Positions 1,705 to 45,566 are shown, counted from the first letter of the stretch. The stretch is 64,000 nucleotides of DNA from Minisyncoccota bacterium (GCA_046350795.1 JAXLZT010000002.1:24293-88292); one strand, 5' to 3'. Numbers and translations are program-made. The notes: a model not told the origin generated them from the letters alone.

Positions 1705-3441
1705 ATGTCTCAAACAGAAAAAGAGCTACACGCTCAAATCGCGGATTTACAATCCGAGATCAAAAAATTAAAGAACCGCAAAAAATACGGACTCGTTTGG
1801 GAAGACAAACCCGAGGATGTCGTTTTGCAGTGCCAAGAGAACATTCCAATTCTCAAAGAAGTTAAAACCAGAAAATTAGTTTCTGATAATTCGCTCCCGA
1901 CCAACATCTTGATCGAAGGAGACAATTACCACTCTCTTTCTGTTTTGAACTATACCCATCGCGGCGCAGTCGATGTTATTTACGCTGATCCGCCATACAA
2001 TACTGGATCGACTGACTGGCGATACAACAACGATTACGTCGATAAGACCGATAGCTTTCGGCACAGCAAGTGGATCTCTTTTATGGAAAAGAGATTGCGC
2101 CTTGCAAAAAATCTCCTGAAAGAAGACGGGATTATTTGCGTTACGATTGACGATTACGAAGTCTCAAGACTTATTCTTTTGATGGAAGAGATTTTCGGTG
2201 AGTTTAACCACCTTGGAACTGTACCAATCAGAAACAATCCAGCTGGACGTTCAACGACGAAAGGAATATCGATTACTCACGAATATGCAGTCTTTTTTGG
2301 AAAAACAGATAAGGCATTTGTATCACGTTTGGACCGTAATCAGTCGCAGCGAGATCGATATGATGAAGCCGACGACAAAGGCACTTTTGAGTGGGTCAAT
2401 TTTCGCAAGCCAGGCAGTATGCGAGAAGAGTCACCTAAAATGTATTACCCGATTTTTGTAACTTCTCATTCTATCCGGCTTCCAAAATTAGTTTGGAATG
2501 AGGATGAGAGCGATTACAAATTATTAGAAAAGCCCAAAAAAGGAGAGGAAATAATTTACCCGATTGATGAGGATGGAAAACAAAGACGATGGCGCTGGGG
2601 TATTGAAAGGTTTGTAAAAGAGCAAGAGGATTTAATGCCTCGAATATCTAAGGGTAAACTCCACGTCTATGTAAAAGGCCGAATGAATGACGAAGGAGTG
2701 CTCCCAATGACATGGTGGGATAAAAAAGAGTATTCATCTACCGCGTACGGAACGAACTTACTCAAAGACATTTTTGCCGAACTTCAAGTATTTTCTTATC
2801 CAAAATCTCTATATGCCGTGATGGATAGCATCCGAGTTATGAGTGATAAGCGAGACGCTGTTATTCTTGATTTTTTTGCTGGATCTGGAACAACCGGTCA
2901 TGCAGCTTTGGAATTGAACAAACTAGATGGGGGTAAAAGAAAGTTCATACTTTGTACCAATAATGAAAACAAGATTTGTGAAGAAGTAACTTACGAAAGA
3001 ATTAAACGAGTCGCCAAGGGATATAAAAACAGAAAGGGAGAAAAAGTCGAAGGACTCGGCGGTAATTTATCTTATTTCAAAACTGACCTCGTCAGTGTTG
3101 ATAGACTGCGCCGTATTTCAGATGAGTCCAAAATCAAAGTTACGTACCAAGCTGGTGAGATGATTGCTCTGCGCGAGGATACTCTAAGCGAAATTGAGAG
3201 GAATGAGTGGTGGCAGATTTTTGAGGGCAATGGAAAACTGACGGCCATTTACTTCACAGAAAATAAAACAAAACTTAAAGAACTTCTAAAATTATTAGAG
3301 AAGAAAGATAAACCAGCGACGCTCTACATATTCGGCTGGGGTAAAAACGAATACAAGAACGATTATTCGACTCACAAGATCCGTGTCGAGGATATTCCTG
3401 AGCCAATTCTTGAAGTTTATAAAGAAATTAACCGCATATAA
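1705..3441 (+). CDS. mod: Type III restriction-modification system methyltransferase (Mod), N6-adenine/N4-cytosine class
   Basis: Catalytic DPPY motif (VIYADPPYNTGS), an AdoMet-binding FxGxG-like motif (DFFAGSGTTGHAA), and length typical of Mod. Confidence 0.85.
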   Translation: MSQTEKELHAQIADLQSEIKKLKNRKKYGLVWEDKPEDVVLQCQENIPILKEVKTRKLVSDNSLPTNILIEGDNYHSLSVLNYTHRGAVDVIYADPPYNTGSTDWRYNNDYVDKTDSFRHSKWISFMEKRLRLAKNLLKEDGIICVTIDDYEVSRLILLMEEIFGEFNHLGTVPIRNNPAGRSTTKGISITHEYAVFFGKTDKAFVSRLDRNQSQRDRYDEADDKGTFEWVNFRKPGSMREESPKMYYPIFVTSHSIRLPKLVWNEDESDYKLLEKPKKGEEIIYPIDEDGKQRRWRWGIERFVKEQEDLMPRISKGKLHVYVKGRMNDEGVLPMTWWDKKEYSSTAYGTNLLKDIFAELQVFSYPKSLYAVMDSIRVMSDKRDAVILDFFAGSGTTGHAALELNKLDGGKRKFILCTNNENKICEEVTYERIKRVAKGYKNRKGEKVEGLGGNLSYFKTDLVSVDRLRRISDESKIKVTYQAGEMIALREDTLSEIERNEWWQIFEGNGKLTAIYFTENKTKLKELLKLLEKKDKPATLYIFGWGKNEYKNDYSTHKIRVEDIPEPILEVYKEINRI

Positions 3442-3443
3442 TT

Positions 3444-5747
3444 ATGTTCGCGCTCAAACCATTTCAAGAAAATGCCATCTCTCAGCTCAAGGAAAAGTTC
3501 CTAACGCTTTGGAAACTTGGCGATCACAATCTCAACCTGACATTCAAATCACCTACTGGTTCCGGTAAGACCATTATGATGGCGCAGTTCCTTCGAGACA
3601 TCGTATCGGACCCGCGATTTCAAAATGCGGATGTTGGATTTCTTTGGATTACAAACTCCGACTCGCTTGCCATGCAGTCAAAGGATAAACTTTTTTCATA
3701 CTATGGCGGCGCTAGTGAAAACCCTCTGCTCGATCTTAACGATTTGAGCGATGGCTGTATTCCAAAGAGCGGGGTATTTTTTATAAACTGGCAGAAGCTC
3801 GTATCTCGTGCTCAGACGAACCGTAAACTTCGTACCGAGGGAGAACTAAATGTAACATTCGATCAATACCTAAACGCAACTCACGAAAAAGGCCGCGAAG
3901 TTATTTTGATTATCGACGAGGAGCATATTGCTTCATCGACCGTGCTGGCGAGCGATCTGATACAAAATGTCATCAAGCCGCGAATAATTATTGGTGTTTC
4001 CGCTACGCCTCAAACGAAAGGAGTAACCGTGGAAGTAGCGCGTACAGATGTGGTTCGGGAGGGACTCATCAAAGAGAAAACTGTTTTTCAAACCGAGGAA
4101 GATCTGCAAAGAAAAGAGTTCGCGGGAATGGACCAAGACGACATCCTATTGACCCTGGCCTTCGATAAACGCACGGAGCTTGCAGGATACTATAAAGCTC
4201 TCGGTATCGACATCAATCCGCTTATCCTCATTCAGCTCCCAAATGACGATAAGGCAACGAAAGGATCGACTGGTACGACTAAACAAGAGTTGATTATATC
4301 CTTCTTGAAATCAAAAGGTGTATTTGAGCACGAAATTGCCGTATGGCTCTCAGAAGACAAGATCAACCTGGACGATGTCGAGAAGAACAATTCGCCGATC
4401 TCTTTTTTGCTTTTCAAACAAGCGGCTGCGACCGGATGGGACTGCCCGCGTGCGAGCGTTCTGGTTATGTTTCGTGAGATCAAAAATCCAACATTTGCTA
4501 TTCAAACCGTGGGACGTATTCTCCGTATGCCGCTCGGTACACACTTTCCAAGACCAGAACTAAACCTTGGCTACCTATATACCAATTACAAGCGAAATGA
4601 AGTTATTACTGGTTATGCTCGATCTGCGGAAAATCGTCCTGCTATCTACGGAAGCTACCGAAAACAATCCGTTGAACCAATTATGATCGACTCTGTGTTT
4701 ATGAGCCGTACTGACTACAACGATCTTGGCGACAGTTTTCAAGATGTTTTCAAAAAGGTTGCTGATAAGTATTTTTCTATCACAGAAAAAGACAGTGAAA
4801 AGGCAATCCAGAAAAGTTTTGTAACAACCGGTTTCGACACTGAGTCTTCAGTCACAAATGGTCTTATTACAGGAGTAGAAATTGATGACTACGATAATTT
4901 CAAGCAGGAGCTTTTGTCGGAAGGAGGAAGCCACGAGCAAGAAATATCCCAGTATGATCTTGAGCGGCTCTATAACTTGCTTTGTTTCAACATTGTCGCA
5001 AAGCAGACTGACGAGAATAAAAAGTTTGCCCCTGAGCGTTCATGGGGAAAGCTGAAAACGGCGCTCAATGTATGGCTCCTCGGTCATTTGAACGCGTCGC
5101 GCTCCAAGGTCTACTCTATGATCGTGGGTGATCTTATAAAGTCCACAAGCGTACTCGCGCCTCTTATTGGTAAGGCGCTGGAAGCGTATCGTCCAATCCG
5201 CGAGCAGGAAGTAAACCGCAAGTCTGAACGCGCCAAGCGTACTGAAAAAATTGAAATCCCTCGCCAGAGTATTTTTTATACCGATCAGTACGAAGAGATG
5301 GACGTTAAAAAGTCTGCAATGGCTCCATTCTATATTGAGAAGGACTACAAGGGAGAGGATAATGAAAAAGAGTTCATCAAGTTCATGGAGGAGAGCAAGA
5401 GTGTTATCTGGTGGTACAAGAACGGCGATGCTGGCAGCGAGTTTTTCTCCATCTCGTATTTCAATCCCGACGAGAACAAGGAAAAACTCTTTTATCCCGA
5501 TTGGATCGTAAAGACGAAGGATAAAACCTGGATCATTGATACCAAGAAAGGTGCAACCGCAGAACTCGCTGACACGGCCTATAAAGCCGAAGCGCTCCAA
5601 GAATGGCTCAAAGGAAAGAAGGGGCTGGCAGGTGGAATTGCAGTGCAGGACGGACCGAATGGATGGAAGACAAACTCAAATACCAAATACTCTTACTCGC
5701 CAACATTTAAGGGCTGGGTATCTCTCGCAGACGAGTTGAAAAGTTAG
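3444..5747 (+). CDS. res: Type III restriction enzyme Res subunit (SF2 helicase-nuclease)
   Basis: Walker A motif SPTGSGKT, a DEAH-like box (IIDEEH), a start immediately after mod (coupled), and size consistent with Res. Confidence 0.8.
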   Translation: MFALKPFQENAISQLKEKFLTLWKLGDHNLNLTFKSPTGSGKTIMMAQFLRDIVSDPRFQNADVGFLWITNSDSLAMQSKDKLFSYYGGASENPLLDLNDLSDGCIPKSGVFFINWQKLVSRAQTNRKLRTEGELNVTFDQYLNATHEKGREVILIIDEEHIASSTVLASDLIQNVIKPRIIIGVSATPQTKGVTVEVARTDVVREGLIKEKTVFQTEEDLQRKEFAGMDQDDILLTLAFDKRTELAGYYKALGIDINPLILIQLPNDDKATKGSTGTTKQELIISFLKSKGVFEHEIAVWLSEDKINLDDVEKNNSPISFLLFKQAAATGWDCPRASVLVMFREIKNPTFAIQTVGRILRMPLGTHFPRPELNLGYLYTNYKRNEVITGYARSAENRPAIYGSYRKQSVEPIMIDSVFMSRTDYNDLGDSFQDVFKKVADKYFSITEKDSEKAIQKSFVTTGFDTESSVTNGLITGVEIDDYDNFKQELLSEGGSHEQEISQYDLERLYNLLCFNIVAKQTDENKKFAPERSWGKLKTALNVWLLGHLNASRSKVYSMIVGDLIKSTSVLAPLIGKALEAYRPIREQEVNRKSERAKRTEKIEIPRQSIFYTDQYEEMDVKKSAMAPFYIEKDYKGEDNEKEFIKFMEESKSVIWWYKNGDAGSEFFSISYFNPDENKEKLFYPDWIVKTKDKTWIIDTKKGATAELADTAYKAEALQEWLKGKKGLAGGIAVQDGPNGWKTNSNTKYSYSPTFKGWVSLADELKS

Positions 5748-5802
5748 TTGCTATTAGTAGCTCGAAAGTAAACTAAAATCAAAGATAGTTTCTATCTGAT
5801 GT

Positions 5803-7038
5803 TTAGTGGTCGTGCATCGGTATTGTCTCATTGCCGACAGGAGAAAAGATGTCCGGATTTGGATCGCCGGTAACATCAAGCACAGCCCATGCGCCTTTGT
5901 TCATACGAGCAAGTGCGTGATCGACAAGAAGATACTTGCCTGGCACGTTGAGCGTAAACTCCACAATACTTGAACCGCCTGGAAGTACGGCCGTCGTCTG
6001 TACATTTTTTTCTATTGTTCCTCCGATGTTTCCTTCGGGATAGACGGTGTCAAAAACCTCGCCAATGACATGGAAGGAGGAAATGAGATTGACACCGCCG
6101 TTGCCAACATAGATGCGGATCTTATCGCCGACTTTGGCATGCATACGCGGAGCACTCTCAATCTTACCGTTGAACGTGACGTACGTCGGATTTCCGTCAA
6201 GCAACTTATCAGAGTCAAAAGCCACCAATCCTTTTTTGCCGAGCTGACCGACGGTGTAGAGTTCGCCTTGAACGATATAAAACTCTTTATCTACTTTTGG
6301 CAGTCCTCCTTTAGGCTCAACGAGAATGAGTCCATACTGGCCGTGCGAGTTGTGGGTTGATACATTCGGCATGGCGCAGTGATAGATATACAGGCCTGGG
6401 TTGAGCGCTTTCCATCGGAAAGTTTTTGTTTCGCCTGGCAGAACTTCAGTAAGCGATGCGCCGCCGCCTTGACCCGTTACTGCGTGGAGATCAATGTTGT
6501 GATGGTGGAGACTGGTCGGATCATTCGTGAGCGAAAGTTCTATCGTATCTCCCTCGCGTACGCGGAGCATCGGTCCTGGCGTCTGACCGTTATACGTCCA
6601 GTAGTTGTAGTAAATGCCAGGGGCGATTTGCGAGATTACTTCCTTCACATCGAGGTGTATTCGCACAATGCCGTCAGCATCTGGTTTCTGTGGTTCGGCT
6701 GGAACAGCATTCGGATCTGCGCCAATATCTGCTACGCGCTCAAACTTATTTTCATACAAAAAGAAATCGAGGATTTTATTGAAAGGAATTGATGCTGGTA
6801 CGCCGCCTGGCGCGTGTGAATGCATAAATGCAGGCATGGCAAATGTCGGGGGATAGGTGCGGTTAGCCAGGAGTCCAGAGAAAAATGCGATCACGAAAAG
6901 ACAGAGTGGGATAAGAACCGCTTTATGCTTAAAAAAACGCATGAAGTGCGTGCGTTTCTGGAGCTGATACAAAATAAAAATGACTGCGATTGCGCCGATC
7001 ACTGCTGATAGCAATTCGAGAAGCATGTATGTAAGCAT
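5803..7038 (-). CDS. Membrane-anchored two-domain multicopper oxidase, copper nitrite reductase (NirK)-like
   Basis: HHHNIDLHAVTG resembles the NirK HNxDFHAATG type1/type2 Cu ligand motif. YIYHCAMPNVSTHNSHGQYG resembles the NirK HC...H...M segment with Gln in place of the axial Met. Two N-terminal TM helices. Confidence 0.6.
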   Translation of the reverse strand: MLTYMLLELLSAVIGAIAVIFILYQLQKRTHFMRFFKHKAVLIPLCLFVIAFFSGLLANRTYPPTFAMPAFMHSHAPGGVPASIPFNKILDFFLYENKFERVADIGADPNAVPAEPQKPDADGIVRIHLDVKEVISQIAPGIYYNYWTYNGQTPGPMLRVREGDTIELSLTNDPTSLHHHNIDLHAVTGQGGGASLTEVLPGETKTFRWKALNPGLYIYHCAMPNVSTHNSHGQYGLILVEPKGGLPKVDKEFYIVQGELYTVGQLGKKGLVAFDSDKLLDGNPTYVTFNGKIESAPRMHAKVGDKIRIYVGNGGVNLISSFHVIGEVFDTVYPEGNIGGTIEKNVQTTAVLPGGSSIVEFTLNVPGKYLLVDHALARMNKGAWAVLDVTGDPNPDIFSPVGNETIPMHDH

Positions 7039-7191
7039 AATTTTATTTTATCACTAATAATTTTTTTCCACACTTGCTCTCCGCATCGCCGCGGGAGTAT
7101 ACTGATATTCCAACTAGTTGCAAAGTTTCGCAACTATGAAATTAGTATACTCCAGGCGTTTGTCGGACGCAATAGGGGGAGGAAATGATTT

Positions 7192-7737
7192 ATGAATAAT
7201 TATGTAAAAAATTGGTTCAAGTTTGTGCTCGGGTTTATTGTGTGTTTGCTTATACGCCTCATTCAATTTCGTCCCCCGAATATCGAGCCGATTATGGCGA
7301 CTGCTCTGCCTTTCGGACGCGCCTACGGTAAAGGAGCGGGGTTTCTCTTTCCCTTTGCAAGCATGGTCCTCTTTGATCTTGTAGTCGGCAAAGTAGGCGT
7401 ATGGACCCTTATCACTGCGCTTGCCTACGGCTTTGTGGGGCTTGGCGCAGCCATCTATCTCCAGAGCAAGAAGAATACTGCCTGGAACTATGCAAAGTTT
7501 GCCATCATTTCGACGCTCTTTTTTGACGCCGTTACTGGCCTGACAGTCGGACCGCTATTCTTCGGCCAGTCACTTACTGCCGCTTTCTTCGGCCAGATCC
7601 CGTTTACCACTCTGCATCTCCTCGGCAACGTATCGTTTGCCCTCGTCCTTTCTCCTGCCCTTTATGCTTTTGTTATTGAAAATAAGCGCCTCGAATTGCC
7701 GAACCTTTTTATCAACCTTAATCCAAAACACGCATGA
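7192..7737 (+). CDS. Small polytopic membrane protein, possibly an ECF-type substrate-capture (S) component (cobalamin-related by context)
   Basis: 181 aa, about 5-6 hydrophobic helices and a GGAGG SD. Lies directly upstream of and overlapping nrdJ. Function is inferred from context only. Confidence 0.35.
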   Translation: MNNYVKNWFKFVLGFIVCLLIRLIQFRPPNIEPIMATALPFGRAYGKGAGFLFPFASMVLFDLVVGKVGVWTLITALAYGFVGLGAAIYLQSKKNTAWNYAKFAIISTLFFDAVTGLTVGPLFFGQSLTAAFFGQIPFTTLHLLGNVSFALVLSPALYAFVIENKRLELPNLFINLNPKHA

Positions 7738-10010
7738 AAAAATTACAAGAAGAAAAAATCGTCAGCATACAAAAGCGCGACGGCTCAATCGTTCCCTTTG
7801 ATGCTTCGCACATTACTCGCGCTATCTTCCGAGCGCTTTCGGCAACCGGCGAAGGCGGAGAACCGGAGGCCGAGCGCGTTACGGCCGCAGTAATGAAATC
7901 GCTTTTTGCGCTCAAGAAAGAACGCAAGGCTAAATACTCGGTCCCGCATGTGGAGACGATTCAGGATGTCGTCGAGAACGAACTCATTGCTGCGCGTTTC
8001 GGACAGACGGCAAAGGCATACATTCTTTACCGCAAAGAGCGTGAGCGTTCACGTAAAGAGCACGGGGCGGTTTCGGAGAAGGTAAAGAAGCTCGTCGCCG
8101 AGAGCAAGAAGTATTTTCGTAATCCGCTTGCCGAGTTCGTGTACTACCGCACGTATGCGAAATGGATCAGCGAGGAAGGTCGCCGCGAAACATGGATTGA
8201 AACGGTAGACCGTTACGTCAATTTTATGAAAGAAAATCTCGGCTCGGGCTTTACAGAAAAAGAATACGAAGAAGTGCGCGAGGCCATTCTCAAACAGGAA
8301 GCTATGCCGTCTATGCGCCTCCTTCAGTTCGCAGGCAAAGCAGCCCGCAAGCAGAACGTCTGCGCATATAACTGCTCCTTTATCGCTCCTCGCTCATTCC
8401 AGGATTTTGCCGAGATTATGTACATCTCCATGTGCGGTACGGGAGTCGGTTTTTCCGTTGAGAGCGAAAACGTCCAGGCATTGCCGCAGATCCAAAAGCA
8501 GACAGGCAAAAAGCTACCTACTCACATCATTGCTGACAGTCGTGAAGGATGGGCAGATGCGCTCGCGCTCGGCATGAAGACATGGTACGAAGGCAGTGAT
8601 ATTGATTTTGATTTTTCTCAAATACGTCCTGCCGGTTCGCGTCTCAAAACAATGGGTGGTAAGAGTTCTGGTCCCGACCCGCTTCGCTCTTTGCTTGGCT
8701 TTGCTCGAGAACGCATCCTGCGACGACAAGGTAGACGGCTCTCAAACATCGACGCGCACGACATTATCTGCAAGATCGGCGAGTGTGTAGTCGCTGGCGG
8801 AGTCCGCCGTTCAGCTATGATCTCGCTTTCCGATCTCGACGATGAAGCGCTCCGCGATGCCAAGAAAGGCCAATTTTATTTCACCGAAGGCCAGCGTATG
8901 CTTGCCAACAATTCTGCCGTCTATCTCGCAAAGCCGGATACCCAGACGTTCCTCGACGAGTGGACCGCGCTCGTAAAATCCGGTTCCGGCGAACGAGGCA
9001 TTTTCAACCGAGGCGGACTCGCGCAAACACTTCCGAAGCGCCGTCTCGATCAGTGGGAGGATGGGGCGTATCCCTCTTTCGGAACCAATCCGTGCGGCGA
9101 GATTATTCTTCAGTCAAAGCAATTCTGTAACCTTTCGGAAGTTGTTGTACGTGCAGACGACACAGAAGAAACGTTGCTCAAAAAAGTACGAGTGGCAGCA
9201 ATGCTTGGTACATACCAGTCCTCCCTTACATACTTCCCATACCTCTCCCGCGAGTGGAAGAAAAACTGCGAAGGTGAACGTCTACTCGGCGTTTCTATTA
9301 CCGGCCAGTGGGATTGCCCGCTCGTGCGTGATCCAGAGATGCTTGAAAAAATGAAAGCAGTGGCAATCGAGACGAACAAAAAGTTTGCCAAGCGCCTCTC
9401 TGTGAGCCAGTCTACCTGCATCACGTGCGTAAAACCTTCCGGCACTGTCTCCCAGACTGTGGACTGTGCTTCCGGCATGCATCCGCGCCATGCGCCGTAT
9501 TACATCCGCCGCATCCGCATTTCCGCCACTGATGCGCTTTTCAAAATGCTCAAAGATCAGGGAGTGCCGTACTTTCCCGAAGTCGGCCAGACTCTTGAAA
9601 ATGCCACTACATTCGTACTTGAGTTTCCGGTCAAAGCGCCGGACGGTGCGCTCTGCAAGGACGACGTTTCTGCACTTGGCCAGCTCGAACATTGGAAGAT
9701 CGTAAAGAAACACTACACCGAGCACAATCCGTCCGTTACGATTTCTGTCGGCGATGATGAATGGATCGCCGTTGCAAATTGGATCTATGAAAACTGGGAT
9801 CTTGTCGGCGGCCTCTCGTTCCTTCCTCGATCTAATCACGTCTATCAGCTTGCGCCGTACGAAACTATCAACAAGGAGCGCTACGAAGAACTCTTGAAGC
9901 ATGTTGAGAACCTCGATTTCTCGAAAATTGTTACGTACGAAACGGTCGATGAGACAGAAGTTAAAAACGAACTCGCATGTGTGGCAGGTGTGTGCGAGAT
10001 AGCACTTTAA
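7734..10010 (+). CDS. nrdJ: Class II (adenosylcobalamin-dependent) ribonucleotide reductase with N-terminal ATP-cone
   Basis: ATP-cone-like N-terminus (VSIQKRDGSIVPFDASHITRAI), the NPCGEI active-site motif, and 758 aa. Confidence 0.8.
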   Translation: MKKLQEEKIVSIQKRDGSIVPFDASHITRAIFRALSATGEGGEPEAERVTAAVMKSLFALKKERKAKYSVPHVETIQDVVENELIAARFGQTAKAYILYRKERERSRKEHGAVSEKVKKLVAESKKYFRNPLAEFVYYRTYAKWISEEGRRETWIETVDRYVNFMKENLGSGFTEKEYEEVREAILKQEAMPSMRLLQFAGKAARKQNVCAYNCSFIAPRSFQDFAEIMYISMCGTGVGFSVESENVQALPQIQKQTGKKLPTHIIADSREGWADALALGMKTWYEGSDIDFDFSQIRPAGSRLKTMGGKSSGPDPLRSLLGFARERILRRQGRRLSNIDAHDIICKIGECVVAGGVRRSAMISLSDLDDEALRDAKKGQFYFTEGQRMLANNSAVYLAKPDTQTFLDEWTALVKSGSGERGIFNRGGLAQTLPKRRLDQWEDGAYPSFGTNPCGEIILQSKQFCNLSEVVVRADDTEETLLKKVRVAAMLGTYQSSLTYFPYLSREWKKNCEGERLLGVSITGQWDCPLVRDPEMLEKMKAVAIETNKKFAKRLSVSQSTCITCVKPSGTVSQTVDCASGMHPRHAPYYIRRIRISATDALFKMLKDQGVPYFPEVGQTLENATTFVLEFPVKAPDGALCKDDVSALGQLEHWKIVKKHYTEHNPSVTISVGDDEWIAVANWIYENWDLVGGLSFLPRSNHVYQLAPYETINKERYEELLKHVENLDFSKIVTYETVDETEVKNELACVAGVCEIAL

Positions 10011-10014
10011 TCAT

Positions 10015-10536
10015 ATGCACCTTGCATTTACAGGCAATGGAAAAGGAAAAACAACAGCAGCCATCGGCAACGCAATCAGAGTTATTGGAGCTGATAAACG
10101 CGCTCTCATGGTTCAGTTCATTAAGGGACCCTGGATATCTGGAGAGGATAAGTGTGCAGAGCGACTGGGACCGGATTTTAGAATTGTGAAAACAGGCAAA
10201 GGGTTCGTCGGTATTCTTGGAGACACGCTTCCGATCGAAGAACACCGAAATGCTGCCGAAGAAGGACTACGGATTGCAAAGAAAGAGATCGCCAGTGGCA
10301 AGTGGCATCTCTTAATTCTCGACGAAGTTCACAATGCCATCTCACTTGGCCTGCTTTCAGAGACGGTCGTCAGTACGTTTTTGGATTATGCAAAGAGTAA
10401 GGTTGAACACATCATCACGACTGGCCGCGATGCACCAAAACAAATCATCGAACATGCCGATCTGGTAACGGAGATGAAAGAAATCAAGCATCCGTATCAG
10501 ACGGGGCGGTTCGCAGAGAAAGGGTTAGATTTTTAA
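10015..10536 (+). CDS. cobO: ATP:cob(I)alamin adenosyltransferase (CobO/CobA/BtuR family)
   Basis: P-loop TGNGKGKTTAAIG followed by VQFIKG, both diagnostic of CobA/BtuR. About 173 aa. Confidence 0.8.
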   Translation: MHLAFTGNGKGKTTAAIGNAIRVIGADKRALMVQFIKGPWISGEDKCAERLGPDFRIVKTGKGFVGILGDTLPIEEHRNAAEEGLRIAKKEIASGKWHLLILDEVHNAISLGLLSETVVSTFLDYAKSKVEHIITTGRDAPKQIIEHADLVTEMKEIKHPYQTGRFAEKGLDF

Positions 10537-10547
10537 CAGCATATTGT

Positions 10548-10685
10548 CCCGATCGGGGAAGCAGGGTGTAATTCCCTCACAGTGCCGCTACGGTGAAAGT
10601 CCGAATGCCGATCAGGATATAATCCCGAGCAGGAAGACGCGCATATATGCGACGGCAATACTCCTCTCGGCAGAGGAGTATTTTT
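10548..10685 (+). promoter_or_regulatory. Probable cobalamin (B12) riboswitch with terminator-type expression platform
   Basis: GGGAAGCAGGGTGTAATTCCC...CACAGTGCCGCTACGGTGAAAG matches the cobalamin aptamer core consensus (GGGAAG..GGTG.AA.TCC...C.G.CCCGC.AC.GT.AA). The hairpin TACTCCTCTCGGCAGAGGAGTA plus TTTTT (10659-10685) abuts the ATG at 10686. Confidence 0.6.
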
Positions 10686-11159
10686 ATGACTAACAATAAA
10701 AAGATATATAGTGGGTTCATTGTTCTGGCGATACTTATTTTCGCCATTCTGTACTTTGGAGCACATAGAACAGAAGCCCCGTCGGTTTCAGTACCGGCAG
10801 TTTCAGAACAGGTACAAAGTCCTGTTCCCGAACAAGCGGTTCCTCCGGCCAAGAACGAACCTGTTTCTGCGCCGGAAGTTTCGAGCGCATTCAATGTTAC
10901 GGCTGGCACGGCAACACTTTCTCTTTCAACAACCGGCGGATCGTTTCTTTCTATTCTTTCTGCGGCAAAGGAGCGCGGAGAGTTGGCTTTTTCCGGCAAG
11001 GATTATCCTGGACTCGGATTTTTTGTAACGGAGATCGGCTCTTTGAAAGAAGGAAATGGCAAGCATCTCATGTACTACATTAACGGCACAGAGGCGTCAG
11101 TCGGCGTTTCTCTCTATGTTCCAAAAGCTGGCGATACCGTCGTCTGGGAACTCAAATAA
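10686..11159 (+). CDS. Membrane-anchored DUF4430-like protein (transcobalamin/intrinsic-factor C-terminal beta-domain-like); start corrected to MTNNKK
   Basis: N-terminal TM helix and a Pro/Val-rich linker. The C-terminal segment ...GKHLMYYINGTEASVGVSLYVPKAGDTVVWEL resembles the DUF4430 signature (GWMYxVNG....Y.LKDGD.I.W). The track start at 10647 would overlap the riboswitch terminator. Confidence 0.5.
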   Translation: MTNNKKIYSGFIVLAILIFAILYFGAHRTEAPSVSVPAVSEQVQSPVPEQAVPPAKNEPVSAPEVSSAFNVTAGTATLSLSTTGGSFLSILSAAKERGELAFSGKDYPGLGFFVTEIGSLKEGNGKHLMYYINGTEASVGVSLYVPKAGDTVVWELK

Positions 11160-11161
11160 GT

Positions 11162-13117
11162 ATGAAAAAACTTCTTGCAGTATTGTTTCTTTTTTGCGCC
11201 GTTAGCTTCGGAGTTCGTGCTTATGCCGACGATGTTCCTCTGGACACTCCAGTAGATCCTGCTCCTATTGTGGATGAGACACCGCCAGCCGAAGATCCTC
11301 TCCCGCTTCCGACTGCGACACTCATTATCCGCTCGGGAGACACGGTGCTCTACAGTGGCAGTGTTTCCATTCCTGAAGAGAGTTCCGTAGAGATTGCCGA
11401 TAGTACCGGCGCTCTGCATTCTGTTTCCGCGCGGAGCGTACTTGCACTTCTTACGGCGCTTGATGCTTCCAATGATGACTTTGCCATAACCAATCTCACA
11501 TACTATCCTTCGTTTTCTTCTTTCTATCTCAAATGTCTAACACCGAGCGGAGAAATTGAACAATGCGATAACTGGCAGTATGCTGTCGGCAGTACGACCC
11601 CGTCTAGCAGTATTGATACCACTATTCTTTCTGGCGGCGAAACGGTGGGACTATACTTCGGTTCTCCGCACCGAGTTTCTTTGAGTGCGACTTCTGTTAC
11701 AAAAGGCGATGCGTTTATCGCCACCGCGCAGTCCTACAATTATGCGGACAACACCTGGAATGCGCTCTCTGGCGTTACAATCGGAGCAACTGTGCCAAAT
11801 CCAGCCGATCCCTGGACTCCGATAGTGGTAACAACACAAGCAGTAGACGCAGATGGTAAAGCGACGATCACGCTTTCGGATGCCGGAAGTTACTCGGTCG
11901 GCATCGCGGAGGATTTCTACTTTCCTTCGTATGCGCTCTCGGTTACTGAACCGGCTCCTGTCGGCGGCGGTGGAGGTAGCATACCAATCCCAACATTCAG
12001 CGTTGATCGCGCACTTTCATATCTCTACTCGGTCCAGAATGCAGACGGATCTTTTGGAAGTGATCTCTATACTGATTGGGCAGGTATTGCGTATGCGGCA
12101 AGCGGCGCATCACAAAATGCAAAAACTTCACTCATTGGATACCTTTCTTCTCACTCGCAAATAAGCTCTTTGCTTACAGATAATGAACGTAGAGCGGTAG
12201 CACTGCTTTCACTGGAGCAAAATCCATACACGTTTAGCGGGACTAATTATATCTCTCCGATAGTTTCTTCTTTCGATGGGACACAGTTCGGCGATCCGTC
12301 GCTTGTAAACGACGACATCTTTGCACTCTTGCCACTCTCTGCTTCTGGCTATTCCGCGAGCGACGACATGATTGCAAAAGACATTCAGTTTCTGGTAAGC
12401 AAACAGCGACCAGACGGATCATGGGAAGGCAGTGTTGATCTTACTGCATCTGTCATACAAGCACTCCAAGCATTCAACGCCGCACCTGACTCTGTCGCAA
12501 AGGCGATCGCATATTTGCAAACAAATCAGCAGAATGACGGCGGGTTTGGATCAGTGTATTCGACGAGCTGGGCAATGCAGGCCGGAGCGACATGGAGCAA
12601 GAACGGAAAAGCGGGAGCTGATTATCTCGCCTCATCGCAAGCGCCAGACGGTGCGGCCATTCCTGGGAGCGAAAGTACGAACAATCGAGTATGGGCGACG
12701 AGCTATGCCATCCCCGCAGTGCTCGGAAAATCTTGGAGCACTATCATGCATCCAGTTCCAAAGCCACAGGTTGTGTCAACCGGATCTTCTTCTGCCACAC
12801 AGACCGAAACAGCAAAGACGCCGGAAGTAATTATCCAAAAGACAGAGGAATCTAAACCCGAGGAACTGCCCGTAGAAGTAGCGCCAAAGGTAGCGGAAAC
12901 TCAGATCACTCTTACTCATACTGAAAAACCTAAAATAACGCCTCAAGTTGAAAACAATATGGAAGAAATTAAGACCGAGAAACCAGTAGAGTCGACTTCT
13001 CTTGCAGCCGCCGCAGGAGAAAGCAAGACCGACATACCAACTCCGGTAGTTGCCGTATCGCTCGCCGGAATTGGGGTCCTGGCGCTTATTGCGCGGAAGA
13101 TCTTTTTGAAGTTCTAA
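11162..13117 (+). CDS. Cell-surface protein with alpha/alpha-toroid (prenyltransferase/squalene-cyclase-like) repeats; candidate cobalamin-binding (transcobalamin N-domain-like) protein
   Basis: Signal peptide. Repeated QW-like motifs (SVQNADGSFGS, SKQRPDGSWEG, TNQQNDGGFGS, SSQAPDGAAIPG). Pro/Glu-rich stalk and a C-terminal TM anchor (VAVSLAGIGVLALIARKIFLKF). Translationally coupled to the DUF4430-like gene. Confidence 0.5.
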   Translation: MKKLLAVLFLFCAVSFGVRAYADDVPLDTPVDPAPIVDETPPAEDPLPLPTATLIIRSGDTVLYSGSVSIPEESSVEIADSTGALHSVSARSVLALLTALDASNDDFAITNLTYYPSFSSFYLKCLTPSGEIEQCDNWQYAVGSTTPSSSIDTTILSGGETVGLYFGSPHRVSLSATSVTKGDAFIATAQSYNYADNTWNALSGVTIGATVPNPADPWTPIVVTTQAVDADGKATITLSDAGSYSVGIAEDFYFPSYALSVTEPAPVGGGGGSIPIPTFSVDRALSYLYSVQNADGSFGSDLYTDWAGIAYAASGASQNAKTSLIGYLSSHSQISSLLTDNERRAVALLSLEQNPYTFSGTNYISPIVSSFDGTQFGDPSLVNDDIFALLPLSASGYSASDDMIAKDIQFLVSKQRPDGSWEGSVDLTASVIQALQAFNAAPDSVAKAIAYLQTNQQNDGGFGSVYSTSWAMQAGATWSKNGKAGADYLASSQAPDGAAIPGSESTNNRVWATSYAIPAVLGKSWSTIMHPVPKPQVVSTGSSSATQTETAKTPEVIIQKTEESKPEELPVEVAPKVAETQITLTHTEKPKITPQVENNMEEIKTEKPVESTSLAAAAGESKTDIPTPVVAVSLAGIGVLALIARKIFLKF

Positions 13118-13144
13118 TCGGTAAAGATTGCTTTTTTTGCCGCA

Positions 13145-13492
13145 TTGTTGCATACTTTTGAAACTAGTATGCCTACGAAAAAATCATCAAAGAAAATAAA
13201 ACAGCCTCTCCCACGAACTGCGTACCGACGCAACGCCGAAACCTATAAGATCCTCGCTAATCCGAAGCGCCTTGAGATCCTGAACCTTCTCCGTGAGCAG
13301 GAAATGTCAGTAGAAGAACTGGTAAAAACCCTCGGCATATCAAAGGCCAATGTTTCCCAGCATTTGGCGCTCCTTCGCCATGCTGATCTCGTGACAGTCC
13401 GCCGCGAGGGACTCAACGGGTACTACAACATCATCGATCCTCGCATCGTAGAGCCATGCCGCATTCTCCATCAGCTTGCTTTGGCTCGATAA
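13145..13492 (+). CDS. ArsR/SmtB family transcriptional regulator
   Basis: HTH segment LEILNLLREQEMSVEELVKTLGISKANVSQHLALLRHADLV. Confidence 0.7.
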   Translation: MLHTFETSMPTKKSSKKIKQPLPRTAYRRNAETYKILANPKRLEILNLLREQEMSVEELVKTLGISKANVSQHLALLRHADLVTVRREGLNGYYNIIDPRIVEPCRILHQLALAR

Positions 13493-13695
13493 AGGCGAAA
13501 ACCCTTGTATTTATTAGCCAACTGCCTGCCAATTAGCCACAAACGCGAACCGATTTAGGTCCGAAATGATCATTAGTGCGGTTCTGACTTCATCTAAGCC
13601 CCGCAGCCAATTTGAGCTAGGACGAGATGCGTATGGATCTCATGCGCTCGAAGTGCATCGTTTAGCAAATTTTGTAGAAGCGATACAATACAACT

Positions 13696-18226: not shown

Positions 18227-21200
18227 ATGGGTGATTTTTCGACTAAAAAATTTTTTCTAAAAACAGTTTTCACACTGTTTGTCTTTTTATTTTTTACTTC
18301 ACAGGTGTATGCTGCCACTATTTATTCAAATAGTAGTACAGGAAATGATTCTACTGGTGATGGTACTAGTGGTTTACCATATCGTACATTTCACAAAGCA
18401 TATACCGTGGCGAGCGCTGGTGACACTATCAATCTCACCGGTACATTTACATGGACTGATGCATCTGAAACAGGTGACGCGTCTCCAGCTGGATATACAA
18501 TAGGAAAAAATCTTACTATTGTCGGACAGGGTGCAGATGAGACTATCGTGCAATCTGCCACAGCATCTACTACGGGTGATAGACGTGTGTTTACTGTGTC
18601 TGCCGGCATAGTTGCTAATTTTGATAAATTAAACATAAGACATGGTCGTGTGACGGGTTCTGTATATGGCGGTGGTATTTATAATAGCGGTACCACTACG
18701 GTGACAAATTCGGATATAAACAACAACTCTAGTCCATCATATGGTGGAGGCGGTGTTGCAAACTACGGCATTTTTACTATCGAAGATAGTTCTATACGAA
18801 ATAATACTGGATATTATGGTGGTGGAGGTATTAGAAATATGGATTTGCTGGCAGATCTTTTTATCACAAATACCACCATTACTGGAAATCAGCAGATGTC
18901 GAGCACTGGGTATACCGATGGAGGAGGTATAGATGCGAGATATGGAGATGTGACGCTCACAAACTCTGCGATTGTTTACAACTCAGCGTATGGCACGGGT
19001 GGACTTTGTATGTGTGATACCACCGGTACTTTGACGATAAAGAATACTATTATTGCCAACAACTTAAAAAAAGGCGGTGGCTCTGCATACGATTTTTATA
19101 AAAATAATGTAGGTAGTACTGTAACTGATAATGGAAAAAATATTGTTGGAAGTTCAAATGGTAGTTACACGTGGGTGGGCTCTGGTGATTGGACGGACAC
19201 TGATTTAAACGGAAGTTTTACACTATACAGTGTCGGTACTACTGGCTCCTTAAATATGGAATCTACATCAAGCACAAATGATGATCCAGATGGTACATAC
19301 AATCACGCTATTTTTGCAAGCTCTATTGCAATAGATAATGGAGCCACTGGTGCAAACGGTGCCACATCTACTGTACCCACACTAGATCAGCGTGGTGCTA
19401 CACGTAATAGCACTACAGATATTGGTCCTTTTGAATACAATGGGGGTGGTCTTTCTATATCAGCTCCCACCACCCAAGCATCTTCTGTAACTTTTAGTTC
19501 CGTTGAATACAACAGAATGACTGTGAGTTGGACAAATGGTAACGGCTCACGACGTGTAGCTTTTATGAAAGCAGCTAGTAGCGGTACGGCGTCACCAGTA
19601 GATGGTACATCATATGCCTCAAGCTCTGTGTTTGGAAGTGGTGATCAGATCGGCTCTTCAGGATGGTATGCGATATATGATGGACTTGGGTCTAGTGTGA
19701 CTGTTACAGGACTTACACAAGGTGTTACATATATAGTGCAAGTATTTGAATACAATGGAGTTTCTTCTGGTACAGCAGATTATCTTACTGATACAGCTAC
19801 AAACAATCCAAACACACAACAATCACATGCCGTTGTTACTTTGTATGTAAATAGTTCCACAGGAAATGATTCTACCGGCGATGGATCAAGTGGAAGTCCG
19901 TATCTCACTTTTCACAAAGGATATACTTCTGCTAGTGCAGGCGACACTATAAATCTTACAGGTACTTTTACATGGACTGATTCTGGAGAGACGGGTGACT
20001 CTGCCACTACGGGTTACACACTTTCAAAAGATTTAACTATTCAAGGCAATGGTGCAGATGACACTATACTTCAGTCTGCCACAGCATCTACTACTGGAGA
20101 CAGAAGAATATTTACTGTTTCATCTGGAGCTACCGTAACTATTGATGACATTATGTTGAGAAATGGTCGTGTGACAGGCTCTGTGTATGGAGGAGCTATT
20201 GATAACAGTGGAACACTTACTATTACTGATTCTGATATCAATAATAATTCCAGTCCTTCGTATGGCGGTGGAGGAATTGTAAATTACAGCACGCTTACTT
20301 TGGACAGAGTGTCTATGTGGAACAACACTGGATATTATGGTGGTGGTGCGATTAGAAATCTAGATGCCAACGGTGATATTTTTATTACAAACTCAACGCT
20401 TGCCTATAATCAACAAATGTCTAGTGGTGTATATACCAACGGTGGAGCTATAGACATGAGGTATGGTGATCTTACTTTGACAAATTCGGTAATAGCTTAC
20501 AACTCAGCGTATGGTGTCGGTGGACTTTGTATGTGTGATACCACAGGTACTTTGACGATAAAAAATAGCATAATAGCTAGCAATCTAAAAAAAGGCGGTG
20601 GCTCTGCATATGATTTTTATAAATCAAACGCAGGTAGCACTGTAACTGATAATGGAAAAAATATCGTCGGAAGTTCAAACAGTAGTTATACTTGGGTGGG
20701 CTCTGGTGATTGGACGGACACTGATTTAAATGGAACCTTTACACTATACAGTGTCGGTACCACAGGTTCTTTAAATCAGAGTAGTACGCTAGCTACAAAC
20801 AGTGCATTAAATAATACTTACACTCTTGCTATTACTTCGGCTAGTTCAATAGCAAAAGATAATGGAGCTACAGGAACAAACGGTACCATATCTGTACCTA
20901 CCACAGATCAGCGACAAGGCACTAGAAACGGTACTACCGATATAGGTGCATATGAGTATGGTGCAACTTTTGGAGATACTACTGTGCCCACCGTGTCTGT
21001 GACGGCTCCAAGCTCTGATGCAACAGTCTCTGGCGCTAGTGTTTCTTTTACAGCAGATGCTAGTGACGATGTGGCTGTGGCGGGAGTAAAATTTTATGTA
21101 AATGGAGTATTGCAGGGAAGCGAAGACACGACTTCTACATATGGTATTACATGGGACAGTACAGCGACTACTTCGGGTGCTTATACTCTAGTAGCCGTCG

Positions 21201-22453
21201 CTCGTGATAGTTCAAATAATTATGCTACTTCTACGAGTGTTTCTTTTAATGTGTTGAATACTGGACCAACACCCACATCTGTAGTAGCTACAGGATCTGA
21301 TAATGGAGCTACTATTACTTGGACTACTGCTGATGCAGCTTCATCACGTGTATATTTTGGTCCTACCACAAGCTATGGTTCTTCTACACCAGAGACAGAT
21401 ACATCACCACGTGTTACTAGTCACTCTGTTTCTGTTTCCGGTTTACCATCCTGTGCTTACTATCATTATTATGTTGAAAGTAAAAATACTGCTTTAGATA
21501 CTGCTACTAGTTCTGATTACACTTTTTCTACTACTGGTTGCACAAGTAGTGCGTCTATTACTGCCAGCGGAAATGGCACCATAGCTACGGCTTCTGGCGG
21601 TACTTTGACACAGGGGGATATTACACTTACTGTGCCTACTTCTTTTACCAATGCATCAAGCTCTGCTATTTTTCAAGCAAATCAACTCAACTCTACGACA
21701 TTCTTTTCTGGGATAACAAATCCAAGTGGTCTTAATGCTGTTGGAGATTCTGTTTTTCATCTTTCTGCTTTCATTGATGCTACCACTACCATCTCCTCTT
21801 TTTCTGCGCCTATTTCTGTAAGGCTTGCTTATACTTCTGCTGATGTTGAAGACATAGATGAAACAACTTTGTGGATATATAGATATGATGGTTCGTCTTG
21901 GTATGCACTTAATGATTGCTCTGTAGATACATCTGGCATGACCGTCACCTGTACTACTACAAATTTTTCTGATTTCGCACTCTTTGGTGAGGGGGTTGAT
22001 AGTAGTGGGGGATCCAATAGTGGTTTTTCTGCCAATAGCCAAGTTGTAAATCTGATCAATATGGGTAAGGTGCATGACGCGGTTTTAATTATTCAAAAAT
22101 ATCCATCTATATTAAACGATAAAAATGTTCTAGATTTTTTGAAAAAATATTTAGATAGTATTGCTCTAACACAAAATGTTGATTTATCTGGGCCGAATAT
22201 TTTGATAGAAAAAGATCTCTATCTTGGTTCAGAGGGTGAAGATGTAAAAAAATTGCAGACGTTTTTGATAGCACAAAATAAAGGTCCGATTTCAAAAGAA
22301 CTCGCTCGTGTGGGTGTTACTGGATATTTTGGTCAATACACAAAAAATGCTTTAGGTGAGTTTCAGAAAAGTGTTGGTATAGTGCCGTATTCTGGATATT
22401 TTGGTCCAAAGACCAGAGCTTTTGTCAGTGATTTAAAAAATACAAAAGAATAG
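18227..22453 (+). CDS. Giant secreted surface protein: two tandem ~500-aa right-handed beta-helix modules, FN3/Ig-like domains and a C-terminal peptidoglycan-binding domain
   Basis: Signal peptide. The 500-aa unit (YSNSSTGNDSTGDG...CMCDTTGTLTIKN...GSSNGSYTWVGSGDWTDTDLNG) appears twice. Gly-rich pectate-lyase/Pmp-like turns. The C-terminus (EDVKKLQTFLIAQNKG...GYFGQYTKNALGEFQKSVGIVPYSGYFGPKTRAFV) resembles PG_binding_1. Confidence 0.6.
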   Translation: MGDFSTKKFFLKTVFTLFVFLFFTSQVYAATIYSNSSTGNDSTGDGTSGLPYRTFHKAYTVASAGDTINLTGTFTWTDASETGDASPAGYTIGKNLTIVGQGADETIVQSATASTTGDRRVFTVSAGIVANFDKLNIRHGRVTGSVYGGGIYNSGTTTVTNSDINNNSSPSYGGGGVANYGIFTIEDSSIRNNTGYYGGGGIRNMDLLADLFITNTTITGNQQMSSTGYTDGGGIDARYGDVTLTNSAIVYNSAYGTGGLCMCDTTGTLTIKNTIIANNLKKGGGSAYDFYKNNVGSTVTDNGKNIVGSSNGSYTWVGSGDWTDTDLNGSFTLYSVGTTGSLNMESTSSTNDDPDGTYNHAIFASSIAIDNGATGANGATSTVPTLDQRGATRNSTTDIGPFEYNGGGLSISAPTTQASSVTFSSVEYNRMTVSWTNGNGSRRVAFMKAASSGTASPVDGTSYASSSVFGSGDQIGSSGWYAIYDGLGSSVTVTGLTQGVTYIVQVFEYNGVSSGTADYLTDTATNNPNTQQSHAVVTLYVNSSTGNDSTGDGSSGSPYLTFHKGYTSASAGDTINLTGTFTWTDSGETGDSATTGYTLSKDLTIQGNGADDTILQSATASTTGDRRIFTVSSGATVTIDDIMLRNGRVTGSVYGGAIDNSGTLTITDSDINNNSSPSYGGGGIVNYSTLTLDRVSMWNNTGYYGGGAIRNLDANGDIFITNSTLAYNQQMSSGVYTNGGAIDMRYGDLTLTNSVIAYNSAYGVGGLCMCDTTGTLTIKNSIIASNLKKGGGSAYDFYKSNAGSTVTDNGKNIVGSSNSSYTWVGSGDWTDTDLNGTFTLYSVGTTGSLNQSSTLATNSALNNTYTLAITSASSIAKDNGATGTNGTISVPTTDQRQGTRNGTTDIGAYEYGATFGDTTVPTVSVTAPSSDATVSGASVSFTADASDDVAVAGVKFYVNGVLQGSEDTTSTYGITWDSTATTSGAYTLVAVARDSSNNYATSTSVSFNVLNTGPTPTSVVATGSDNGATITWTTADAASSRVYFGPTTSYGSSTPETDTSPRVTSHSVSVSGLPSCAYYHYYVESKNTALDTATSSDYTFSTTGCTSSASITASGNGTIATASGGTLTQGDITLTVPTSFTNASSSAIFQANQLNSTTFFSGITNPSGLNAVGDSVFHLSAFIDATTTISSFSAPISVRLAYTSADVEDIDETTLWIYRYDGSSWYALNDCSVDTSGMTVTCTTTNFSDFALFGEGVDSSGGSNSGFSANSQVVNLINMGKVHDAVLIIQKYPSILNDKNVLDFLKKYLDSIALTQNVDLSGPNILIEKDLYLGSEGEDVKKLQTFLIAQNKGPISKELARVGVTGYFGQYTKNALGEFQKSVGIVPYSGYFGPKTRAFVSDLKNTKE

Positions 22454-39153: not shown

Positions 39154-39174
39154 TAGTGTATAATTAAAAAAATT

Positions 39175-41835: not shown

Positions 41836-41836
41836 T

Positions 41837-44419: not shown

Positions 44420-44492
44420 AAATCTCGGGGTCCTGGTGTTGTGATGAGTGTCGACGCACGATCATGATTGAGTGGGTGAGGTGATTGAGTCT

Positions 44493-44852: not shown

Positions 44853-45137
44853 GTGAGCCTCCTTGCAAAAGTGTAGGTGTGGTGTCGGGGAATGACGATG
44901 ATGAAGAACAAGCTTGGTACGCTCAATAACATACACTATATTTCAATATTGTCAAGCGGATGTAGAGTCTATGCATGTATACTTATAGCTTATTTCCTCG
45001 CTAGACTTGACATTTTTCCCATAATCGTCTATGCTTGGGCGCGTAAGAGTTATCTACTAGAAGAACGTAAGACTTGTTTCTTTGTTCGATATAGGGGATT
45101 CGAATCTTACGTTTTATTCATAAGCCCATAATTTATA

Positions 45138-45413: not shown

Positions 45414-45436
45414 TTTATTATCAGGAGTTATCTACA

Positions 45437-45468: not shown

Positions 45469-45566
45469 GTATTCTCATTTGCTTTTATATTTTTGTTAGG
45501 TATTGTTTTTAAGGCGTAAGACTTGTTCTATCCGATTTACTGGTCTACCCACTGAGGAGCCATACT

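Follow-up and report, generated by a model that had tools for sequence, protein, structure and literature searches.

Positions 7192-13117 of a 64,000-nucleotide stretch of DNA from a Minisyncoccota bacterium (GCA_046350795.1 JAXLZT010000002.1:24293-88292; hereafter the window, from whose first letter all positions are counted) probably make up a locus for the salvage and use of corrinoids with riboswitch-gated capture at the cell surface, in a Candidatus Paceibacterota member of the Candidate Phyla Radiation (CPR). We put the probability of this reading at about three in four. According to the map of open reading frames (ORFs), five consecutive ORFs, all on the plus strand, fill the interval, and their junctions are tight: the stop codon of the first gene, which encodes an energy-coupling factor (ECF) S-component, overlaps the nrdJ start by 4 nt, and the distance from the nrdJ end to the cobO start is 4 nt. 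The original prediction, made from the sequence alone, had proposed consecutive same-strand genes between these limits and a role for them in the use of adenosylcobalamin (AdoCbl). All five are present on the plus strand, and each part could be identified, namely the S-component, a class II ribonucleotide reductase (RNR), an adenosyltransferase, a riboswitch, a DUF4430 protein and a toroid protein. The prediction had named as grounds for giving it up the lack of a riboswitch match and of DUF4430 or alpha-toroid similarity in the ORFs; a riboswitch and both kinds of similarity were found. The features are as follows.

7039 to 7191, no strand assigned: divergent intergenic region between nirK (minus strand) and the S-component gene (plus strand), presumed promoter region of the cluster
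7192 to 7737, plus strand: CbrT-like ECF S-component of the DUF6580 family, 181 amino acids (Pfam, profile search, AlphaFold2 model)
7734 to 10010, plus strand: class II RNR with N-terminal ATP-cone, 758 amino acids (Pfam, PDB search)
10015 to 10536, plus strand: CobA/CobO/BtuR-type ATP:cob(I)alamin adenosyltransferase, 173 amino acids (Pfam)
10541 to 10618, plus strand: cobalamin riboswitch aptamer (Rfam RF01689)
10623 to 10634, plus strand: P13/L13 element UCCCGAGCAGGA (leader comparison, folding)
10639 to 10653, plus strand: spacer hairpin, predicted to cap the antiterminator helix (folding)
10658 to 10685, plus strand: intrinsic terminator covering the Shine-Dalgarno sequence (sequence, folding)
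10686 to 11159, plus strand: small membrane-anchored DUF4430/SLBB protein, 157 amino acids from the revised start (Pfam)
11162 to 13117, plus strand: large surface protein, 651 amino acids (model, Pfam, orthologues)

A B12 riboswitch had been thought probable somewhere in 10500-10700. One is found at 10541-10618, beginning 4 nt after the cobO stop codon, as a full-length match (model positions 1-81 of 81) to RF01689 (AdoCbl-II, cobalamin clan CL00101; 57.2 bits against a gathering threshold of 36.5, E = 2.3e-11). Place and kind were therefore right, and the family is the part that changed: RF00174, which belongs to the same clan, was set aside as the family of this element since RF01689 matches best. 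The window aptamer is a minimal class-II form of 78 nt without a P6 extension, with L5 (UGCCG) at 10583-10587. Because orthologous leaders are spread over RF01689, RF01482 and RF00174, following the presence or absence of the P6 extension hairpin, the Rfam sub-family label is uninformative here. The extension itself varies, the minimal leaders of the window, L005, L045 and L046 having been compared with those of L004, L021, L008, L051, L075 and L074. These loci belong to a comparison set of 80 related Paceibacterota loci from species-representative genomes, 1.4 Mb in all, which we searched with a strict riboswitch core motif (CCG[CT]NACGGT ... AAGTCCG). Of the 73 testable loci, 46 have the motif ahead of the DUF4430/toroid gene pair; in each of them it is on the coding strand and just before the DUF4430 gene, and the rest of the 1.4 Mb of related loci is free of it. 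Of 15 loci run against Rfam, 8 likewise have a cobalamin-clan match ahead of the gene pair.

Downstream of the aptamer, the RNA platform can fold either into an antiterminator or into a terminator, the two structures being mutually exclusive. The terminator consists of a 10-bp stem (10658-10667 with 10672-10681) and the loop CGGC, followed by UUUUU and then the ATG at 10686, and its 3' arm contains the Shine-Dalgarno sequence GAGGAG (10673-10678) of the DUF4430 gene. Its 5' arm and loop (UCCUCUCGG) pair with P13 in the antiterminator, where the pairing partner is CCGAG...AGGA; this antiterminator was predicted in 8 of the 8 leaders folded. Folding energies in the window are -17.1 kcal/mol for the antiterminator, -14.5 kcal/mol for the terminator and -1.4 kcal/mol for the isolated P13 hairpin, which is weak. 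The other leaders that were folded have, like the window, a predicted spacer hairpin, whose sequence differs from that in the window. A hairpin and U run precede the start codon in 41 of 46 leaders, the scan having missed or mis-cut the remaining five, and CUCGG is conserved in the terminator loop of the leaders although the terminator alone would not need it. Of the 46 leaders, 44 carry the sequence CCCGAGCAGGA unchanged. The L13 loop, CGAGCA (10626-10631), is complementary to L5 UGCCG with one bulged A, and its bases double, on folding, as the 5' strand of the antiterminator. In leaders L059 and L072, L5 reads CCCCG and is paired instead with L13 CGAAGGGG or CGAGGG, a change that we take to be compensatory and that lends the pairing modest support.

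These features recall the repressing riboswitch of P. megaterium metE, for which mutagenesis proved that a ligand-dependent L5-L13 kissing loop stabilises P13; without ligand, the 5' arm of the terminator is paired instead to the 3' portion of P13, and an equivalent 'structured region' occupies the position of the spacer (PMC10653944). Because the window platform matches this repressing architecture, we read its element as an OFF switch acting on transcription that would also hide the ribosome-binding site. The space between cobO and the aptamer is too short for a promoter, and none was detected, so the riboswitch probably acts as an attenuator inside the operon. Where the upstream gene of another locus is co-directional (34 cases), the gap to it measures 8-120 nt in 30; in 10 loci the upstream gene lies on the opposite strand, and the module can thus also be an independent unit. 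At the other end of the cluster, an Rfam search of 6900-7400 at E <= 1 gave no riboswitch upstream of the S-component gene, and the promoter-like matches in 7039-7191 are weak and on the minus strand only.

The two enzymes encoded upstream of the riboswitch connect the locus to AdoCbl. The product of 7734-10010 contains an ATP-cone, RNR_Alpha, the class II insertion domain RNR-II_ins_dom (PF21995, 30.5 against a threshold of 27) and the Ribonuc_red_lgC barrel (PF02867, 26.5 against 23.9), and its closest solved relative is the AdoCbl-dependent ribonucleoside-triphosphate reductase (RTPR) of L. leichmannii (1L1L, E = 4.9e-51). The insertion domain and this best PDB match both speak for the AdoCbl-dependent RNR that had been proposed. 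Since the score against RTPR TIGR02505, the best NCBIfam match, is 312.4 bits and falls under the equivalog cut-off of 340.05, we file the protein by its profile matches under class II RNR, without the narrower label of RTPR equivalog. The suggested CobO adenosyltransferase is borne out by a full-length match of 10015-10536 to PF02572 (CobA_CobO_BtuR; 173.6 bits against 25.7, profile positions 7-172), with the P-loop GNGKGKTT at residues 7-14; against NCBIfam cobA (TIGR00708) it scores 148.3 bits, under the cut-off of 167.75.

A CobA/CobO-type enzyme occupies the slot after NrdJ only in the window, L001, L002, L030 and L075. Most other loci have an ORF of about 185-215 amino acids there, and the three of these that were run against Pfam (L004 8306-8878, L009 8954-9523, L015 7327-7884) are PduO-type (PF01923, about 1e-41 to 1e-44); equivalent ORFs, placed by size and position without a Pfam run, occur in about 25 further loci, and L003 has no adenosyltransferase in the slot. 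This non-orthologous displacement between CobA and PduO at a fixed position is strong evidence that the cluster needs "an adenosyltransferase" as a function. In L007 (8151-8786) and L020 (7503-8135), a His_Phos_1 gene of the histidine-phosphatase superfamily stands between the PduO gene and the riboswitch. As the CobC alpha-ribazole phosphatase belongs to that superfamily, these genes hint at corrinoid remodelling in some relatives.

For the first gene, an S-component-like membrane protein had been claimed. Pfam assigns 7192-7737 to DUF6580 (38.5 bits, cut-off 27), with a near-threshold match to ECF-ribofla_trS (26.2 bits), and six transmembrane helices are predicted. An identical protein (100%) is deposited as 'DUF6580 family putative transport protein [Candidatus Paceibacterota bacterium]'; a literature search for DUF6580 gave nothing relevant. 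The single sequence has no match in the PDB, and a profile of close homologues matches one PDB chain only, 6FNP_A, at E = 0.004. A broader profile (A3), built from 50%-identity cluster representatives, matches the same chain at E = 4.3e-13 over positions 4-156, almost its full length, with other S-components at E 0.05-1.2 (the next being 4HZU_S, FolT). The 6FNP structure shows ECF-CbrT of L. delbrueckii, whose import of vitamin B12 and cobinamide has been characterised by experiment (PMC5997447), and from the chain length, the label and that paper we infer that chain A is CbrT. The AlphaFold2 model has six long helices (pLDDT 86, pTM 0.80), and Foldseek places it near FolT, RibU and ThiT at TM-scores of 0.55-0.72, FolT and RibU being on top at 0.6-0.7. 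The six-helix fold and a family profile specific to CbrT (4.3e-13 against at least 0.05) sustain the claim, and we propose that the product of 7192-7737 is an inner-membrane corrinoid translocator.

The large protein encoded at 11162-13117 is composed, in order, of the following parts, all on the plus strand.

Residues 1-22: signal peptide
Residues 51-166 (11312-11659): divergent SLBB/DUF4430-like domain
Residues 170-262 (11669-11947): immunoglobulin (Ig)-like domain
Residues 281-528 (12002-12745): alpha/alpha toroid
Residues 541-624 (12782-13033): disordered E/T/K-rich stalk of about 85 residues
Residues 627-650 (13040-13111): C-terminal transmembrane anchor

The model of this protein, built from 61 homologues, has a pLDDT of 82.7 and a pTM of 0.50, which leaves the geometry between its domains uncertain. 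The toroid is of the alpha6/alpha6 kind that characterises the transcobalamin family. In Pfam, the protein matches SQHop_cyclase_C at 48.1 bits, and Prenyltrans (18.4 bits) stays below its cut-off, as does TED. The small protein has an N-terminal transmembrane anchor (hydropathy peak at residues 4-30), a Pro/Ser/Val-rich linker and a C-terminal beta-grasp DUF4430 domain. The DUF4430 match suggested for this ORF lies above the Pfam cut-off (42.9 bits against 23.8, over 10647-11159), and the best PDB sequence match, a weak one at E = 0.08, is the beta domain of rat transcobalamin-2. The start codon at 10647 was rejected because it lies inside the riboswitch expression platform; the most likely start is the ATG at 10686, which lies 7-12 nt beyond GAGGAG and past the terminator. 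It had been suggested that the two proteins together resemble the two domains of transcobalamin. Both domain types are present, but the large protein alone holds both, in the order beta-Ig-alpha, so that on domain content it would by itself be a domain-permuted transcobalamin-like protein and the small protein a second SLBB.

The pairing of these genes is a property of the whole group. Of the 80 loci, 76 have the small DUF4430 gene as the immediate upstream neighbour of the toroid gene. Homologues of about 900 amino acids (P0046, P0056, P0075, P0085, P0114 and P0115; for example L069 9331-12208) have two DUF4430 stretches followed by the toroid, that is, small SLBB, SLBB and toroid in one chain, and these natural fusions of the two genes support a joint function for their products. 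Among the 61 loci with at least 5 kb of upstream sequence, NrdJ is found upstream in 38 and the S-component in 38, in either order. The module is widespread in Paceibacterota.

The original prediction had further held that no corrin-biosynthesis genes accompany the cluster. This is correct for the 42 window ORFs scanned, and it is to the window that the claim applies; among those ORFs, we found none of cob/cbi, btuFCD, ecfA or ecfT. B12 auxotrophy of the organism is what we infer from the 64-kb window.

Our model of the locus is the following. Transcription would start upstream of 7192 and would always yield the S-component, the class II RNR and the CobA-type adenosyltransferase. The CbrT-like S-component would be the membrane translocator for cobalamin or cobinamide, the adenosyltransferase would turn imported cob(I)alamin into AdoCbl, and the RNR would use AdoCbl to make deoxynucleoside triphosphates. 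The riboswitch would be a conditional attenuator inside the operon. With corrinoid bound, L5 UGCCG would kiss L13 CGAGCA, its A bulged, and hold the weak P13 hairpin together; the terminator would then form, the Shine-Dalgarno sequence would be buried and the two surface genes would be off. When corrinoid is scarce, P13 would open and pair with the 5' arm and loop of the terminator, and the resulting antiterminator would allow read-through. The large protein, extracellular, stalked and anchored at its C terminus, would sandwich corrinoid between toroid and beta-grasp, while the small protein would present an N-terminally anchored SLBB close to the membrane. Together, the two surface proteins would capture scarce external corrinoid and pass it to the S-component. 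A bolder proposal, which we advance tentatively and regard as doubtful, is that the CbrT-like S-component works without an ECF ATPase and is fed by a two-tier extracellular relay, a minimal ATP-independent form of B12 piracy in a lineage standing near the ancestor of animal B12 carriers. In such a relay, the stalked permuted binder would reach outward, possibly to a host cell surface in episymbiosis, and the membrane-proximal SLBB would pass the corrinoid on.

Several observations weigh against a riboswitch-gated corrinoid salvage locus. The large protein scores 20.4 bits against Cobalamin_bind (PF01122), below the cut-off of 25, and because this gathering score is missed, we file the protein as one that may work like the transcobalamin family and not as a member; 18 of the 61 orthologues match PF01122 at E <= 0.01, the best at 5.7e-6. 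The toroid fold is generic, terpene cyclases scoring slightly above cobalamin carriers, and complement TED domains head the Foldseek list. The window's own N-domain has no DUF4430 match at E <= 1, and hhalign of the N-domain against the small DUF4430 proteins is weak (P = 0.026 over 70 in-register columns). Our view that the N-terminal beta domain is a divergent DUF4430 comes not from the hhalign result but from the orthologous N-domains, since 13 of 21 match PF14478 (DUF4430; best 5e-7); in P0093, which has the same architecture, the N-domain reaches 29.2 bits, above the cut-off, over residues 89-163. A PDB match of the N-domain profile to designed Kelch repeat proteins was discarded as spurious, its score being the sum of six weak repeats. 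As regards the RNA, the riboswitch is absent from the closest relatives, L001-L003 and L030 (NrdJ 89-94% identical), where the DUF4430 gene starts directly after the preceding stop codon (9481-9640 in L001), and B12 regulation of the pair would therefore be common but dispensable. Covariation in the kissing loop comes from two sequences of 46, and a promoter may be hidden in the 3' end of cobO. There are also no EcfA/EcfT genes in the window or in about 1.4 Mb of the 80 related loci. The ABC ATPases encoded there have FtsEX-like, LivGF-like, MacB-like or two-domain ABC contexts, as judged from gene size, predicted transmembrane count and N-terminal sequence, with Pfam run on the window's two-domain ABC protein only.

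L. sakei also provides evidence against our reading. An ECF operon of that species, in which the transcobalamin beta-like and alpha-like subunits are encoded separately, was tied by experiment to haem uptake (bioRxiv 864751), and this operon favours the possibility that the surface pair captures, and the S-component imports, another tetrapyrrole (haem or a corrinoid precursor) or another ligand. The toroid fold is unspecific to B12 carriers, and CbrT also transports cobinamide (PMC5997447), yet the cobalamin riboswitch ahead of the surface pair argues for corrinoid, and we consider a different ligand unlikely. It is similarly improbable that the S-component-like protein imports an unrelated vitamin and merely neighbours nrdJ. 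The lack of a PDB match for the single sequence, the riboflavin-type S-component match in Pfam and the structural neighbours FolT and RibU could be taken that way, but the specificity of the family profile for CbrT (4.3e-13 against at least 0.05), the 4-nt overlap with nrdJ and the adjacency of the two genes in 38 loci, in either order, all point to corrinoid import, as does the parallel with the nrdJ-cbrS-cbrT-pduO cluster of Lactobacillus (PMC5997447).

Were the toroid protein an extracellular enzyme or an envelope/adhesion protein (terpene-cyclase-, prenyltransferase- or TED-like), its repression by B12 might be indirect, as it is for B12-independent isozymes. An invariant NDD is present at residues 383-385, although phmmer aligns it to squalene-hopene cyclase residues 312-320 and not to the catalytic DxDD motif. 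What is encoded, however, is a single toroid and not the beta-gamma didomain of a cyclase, without the CGEQ thioester motif. The protein is predicted to be secreted and tethered to the membrane via a stalk, it is always paired or fused with DUF4430/SLBB domains, and no isoprenoid genes were found near the locus among the window ORFs scanned, which makes such a role very improbable. A last alternative concerns the direction of the switch, which might be ON, or the element might be a decaying remnant, the surface genes not being B12-repressed in either case. The nearest relatives lack the element, and in the unconstrained minimum free energy fold the P13 region pairs with the aptamer core and the terminator forms without ligand. 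An activating corrinoid riboswitch is moreover known (PMC10653944). The riboswitch match is nevertheless full-length and well over threshold, with platform elements invariant in 44 of 46 leaders, and the activating design requires a P13 that overlaps the terminator (PMC10653944), whereas P13 here does not overlap it and pairs with its 5' arm, as in the repressing design. The ON reading suggested by the unconstrained fold became less likely on comparison with these mutationally proven design rules, and we judge an ON switch or remnant distinctly unlikely.

The cluster lies in a stretch of higher GC content, 0.50 over about 5000-13500 (NirK, B12 cluster and ArsR) against 0.39 in the other 56 kb of the window. 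Given this contrast, the compositional island may have been acquired laterally in this genome; in 40 related loci, the GC difference between cluster and flanks is about 2 points on average. Divergent from the S-component gene is the gene for a copper-containing nitrite reductase, NirK (5803-7038, minus strand), which scores 311 bits against TIGR02376 (cut-off 296) and has an N-terminal transmembrane extension; about 11 related loci show this divergent arrangement as well. Directly after the toroid gene comes an ArsR/SmtB-family regulator (13145-13492, plus strand; NF033788, 87 bits), whose identity across loci is 77-95% against 40-70% for the neighbouring toroid protein and which is directly downstream in 17 of 70 loci; SLBB-ArsR fusions were noted in archaea by Burroughs et al. 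(PMC1796856). Immediately to the left of the island is a Type III-like restriction-modification pair (1705-5747, plus strand) made up of an N6_N4 DNA methylase (1705-3441) and a ResIII helicase-like protein (3444-5747). Elsewhere in the window, there are two very large ORFs, at 18227-22453 (1408 amino acids) and 49618-56316 (2232 amino acids), and several ORFs without Pfam matches at 38542-42445. In the roughly 1.5 kb of 44420-45905, all ORFs are short and implausible and the GC content has local peaks near 0.51; Rfam gave nothing at threshold for this segment, the best match being a chance-level rimP-leader (30.6 bits against 47). Across the whole 64-kb window, Rfam found no tRNA, rRNA or other family apart from the riboswitch.

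The genomes of CPR members (Patescibacteria) are very small, and these bacteria are believed to rely on other cells. Against this background, our findings suggest that many Paceibacterota devote about 6 kb to the theft of vitamin B12, with the operation of their RNR as the sole purpose. The locus family would also constitute a large, diverse, riboswitch-labelled set of bacterial transcobalamin-like proteins, one that bears on corrinoid binding, on split and permuted alpha/beta architecture and on the action of S-components without an ECF module. In addition, ligand selectivity in cobalamin riboswitches could be studied on the orthologous leaders as a natural series, some having a P6 extension and others lacking it. 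Current understanding is not overturned by the locus.

The CbrT system of L. delbrueckii was reportedly predicted by Rodionov et al. in 2009. In that organism, a B12 auxotroph, the genes form an nrdJ-cbrS-cbrT-pduO cluster, and B12 transport by ECF-CbrT was shown experimentally (Santos et al. 2018, PMC5997447). Both clusters place a cobalamin-type S-component beside a class II RNR and an adenosyltransferase. They differ in gene order, in the type of adenosyltransferase (CobA here, PduO in Lactobacillus), in the ECF module, of which none is seen nearby here, and in the riboswitch-gated surface proteins that are attached to the cluster in this CPR host. The surface proteins have their own precedent in the secreted SLBB and toroid proteins of Burroughs, Balaji, Iyer and Aravind (2007), which often have a second SLBB gene, were predicted to be B12 scavengers beside ECF genes and occur in organisms without B12 synthesis; in the Bacillus example, the toroid is C-terminal (PMC1796856). 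Shared with these are the secreted or anchored SLBB fused to a C-terminal toroid and the second, paralogous SLBB gene in the operon. Those proteins are, however, mainly from Firmicutes and lie beside CbiO/CbiQ genes, whereas the present ones are from Paceibacterota and under direct riboswitch control, and the large protein has an intervening Ig-like domain and a C-terminal transmembrane anchor instead of a sortase motif.

Compared with transcobalamin, intrinsic factor and haptocorrin (2BB6, 2PMV, 4KKJ), to which it is about 15-17% identical, the large protein has its domains in the order beta-Ig-alpha as opposed to alpha-beta, is membrane-tethered and is accompanied by a separate extra beta domain protein. 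The L. sakei operon lsa1836-1840 also encodes beta-like (Lsa1839) and alpha-like (Lsa1840) extracellular subunits as separate genes by an S-component, but it has its own ECF ATPase and T components and no reported B12 riboswitch, and it is haem-linked (bioRxiv 864751, 2019). The window element resembles the repressing metE riboswitch of P. megaterium (Kennedy et al. 2023, PMC10653944) in its predicted L5-L13 kissing loop, P13/terminator antiterminator and structured spacer. It differs from it in a 78-nt aptamer without the P6 extension, in a terminator that hides the Shine-Dalgarno sequence and in its position inside an operon, 4 nt past a stop codon. The bulge in L13 is shared with the class-II env8HyCbl.

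BtuG of Bacteroides has a beta-propeller fold. Together with BtuH, it provides a functional parallel, since both are riboswitch-regulated surface lipoproteins that capture B12 before it reaches a membrane transporter (Wexler et al. 2018, PMC6143338), although BtuG and BtuH feed a TonB-dependent outer-membrane transporter and their folds are unrelated to those described here. In the literature searched, we found no account of the present module, a search for CPR and cobalamin gave nothing relevant, and we found no binding experiment on the bacterial transcobalamin-like family, though B12 scavenging was predicted for it in 2007. Altogether, all parts of the locus match kinds that were predicted or characterised between 2007 and 2023. 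What is new is the Paceibacterota host lineage, a riboswitch that directly labels the transcobalamin-like pair, the beta-Ig-alpha order with stalk and transmembrane anchor, and the intra-operonic position of the riboswitch.

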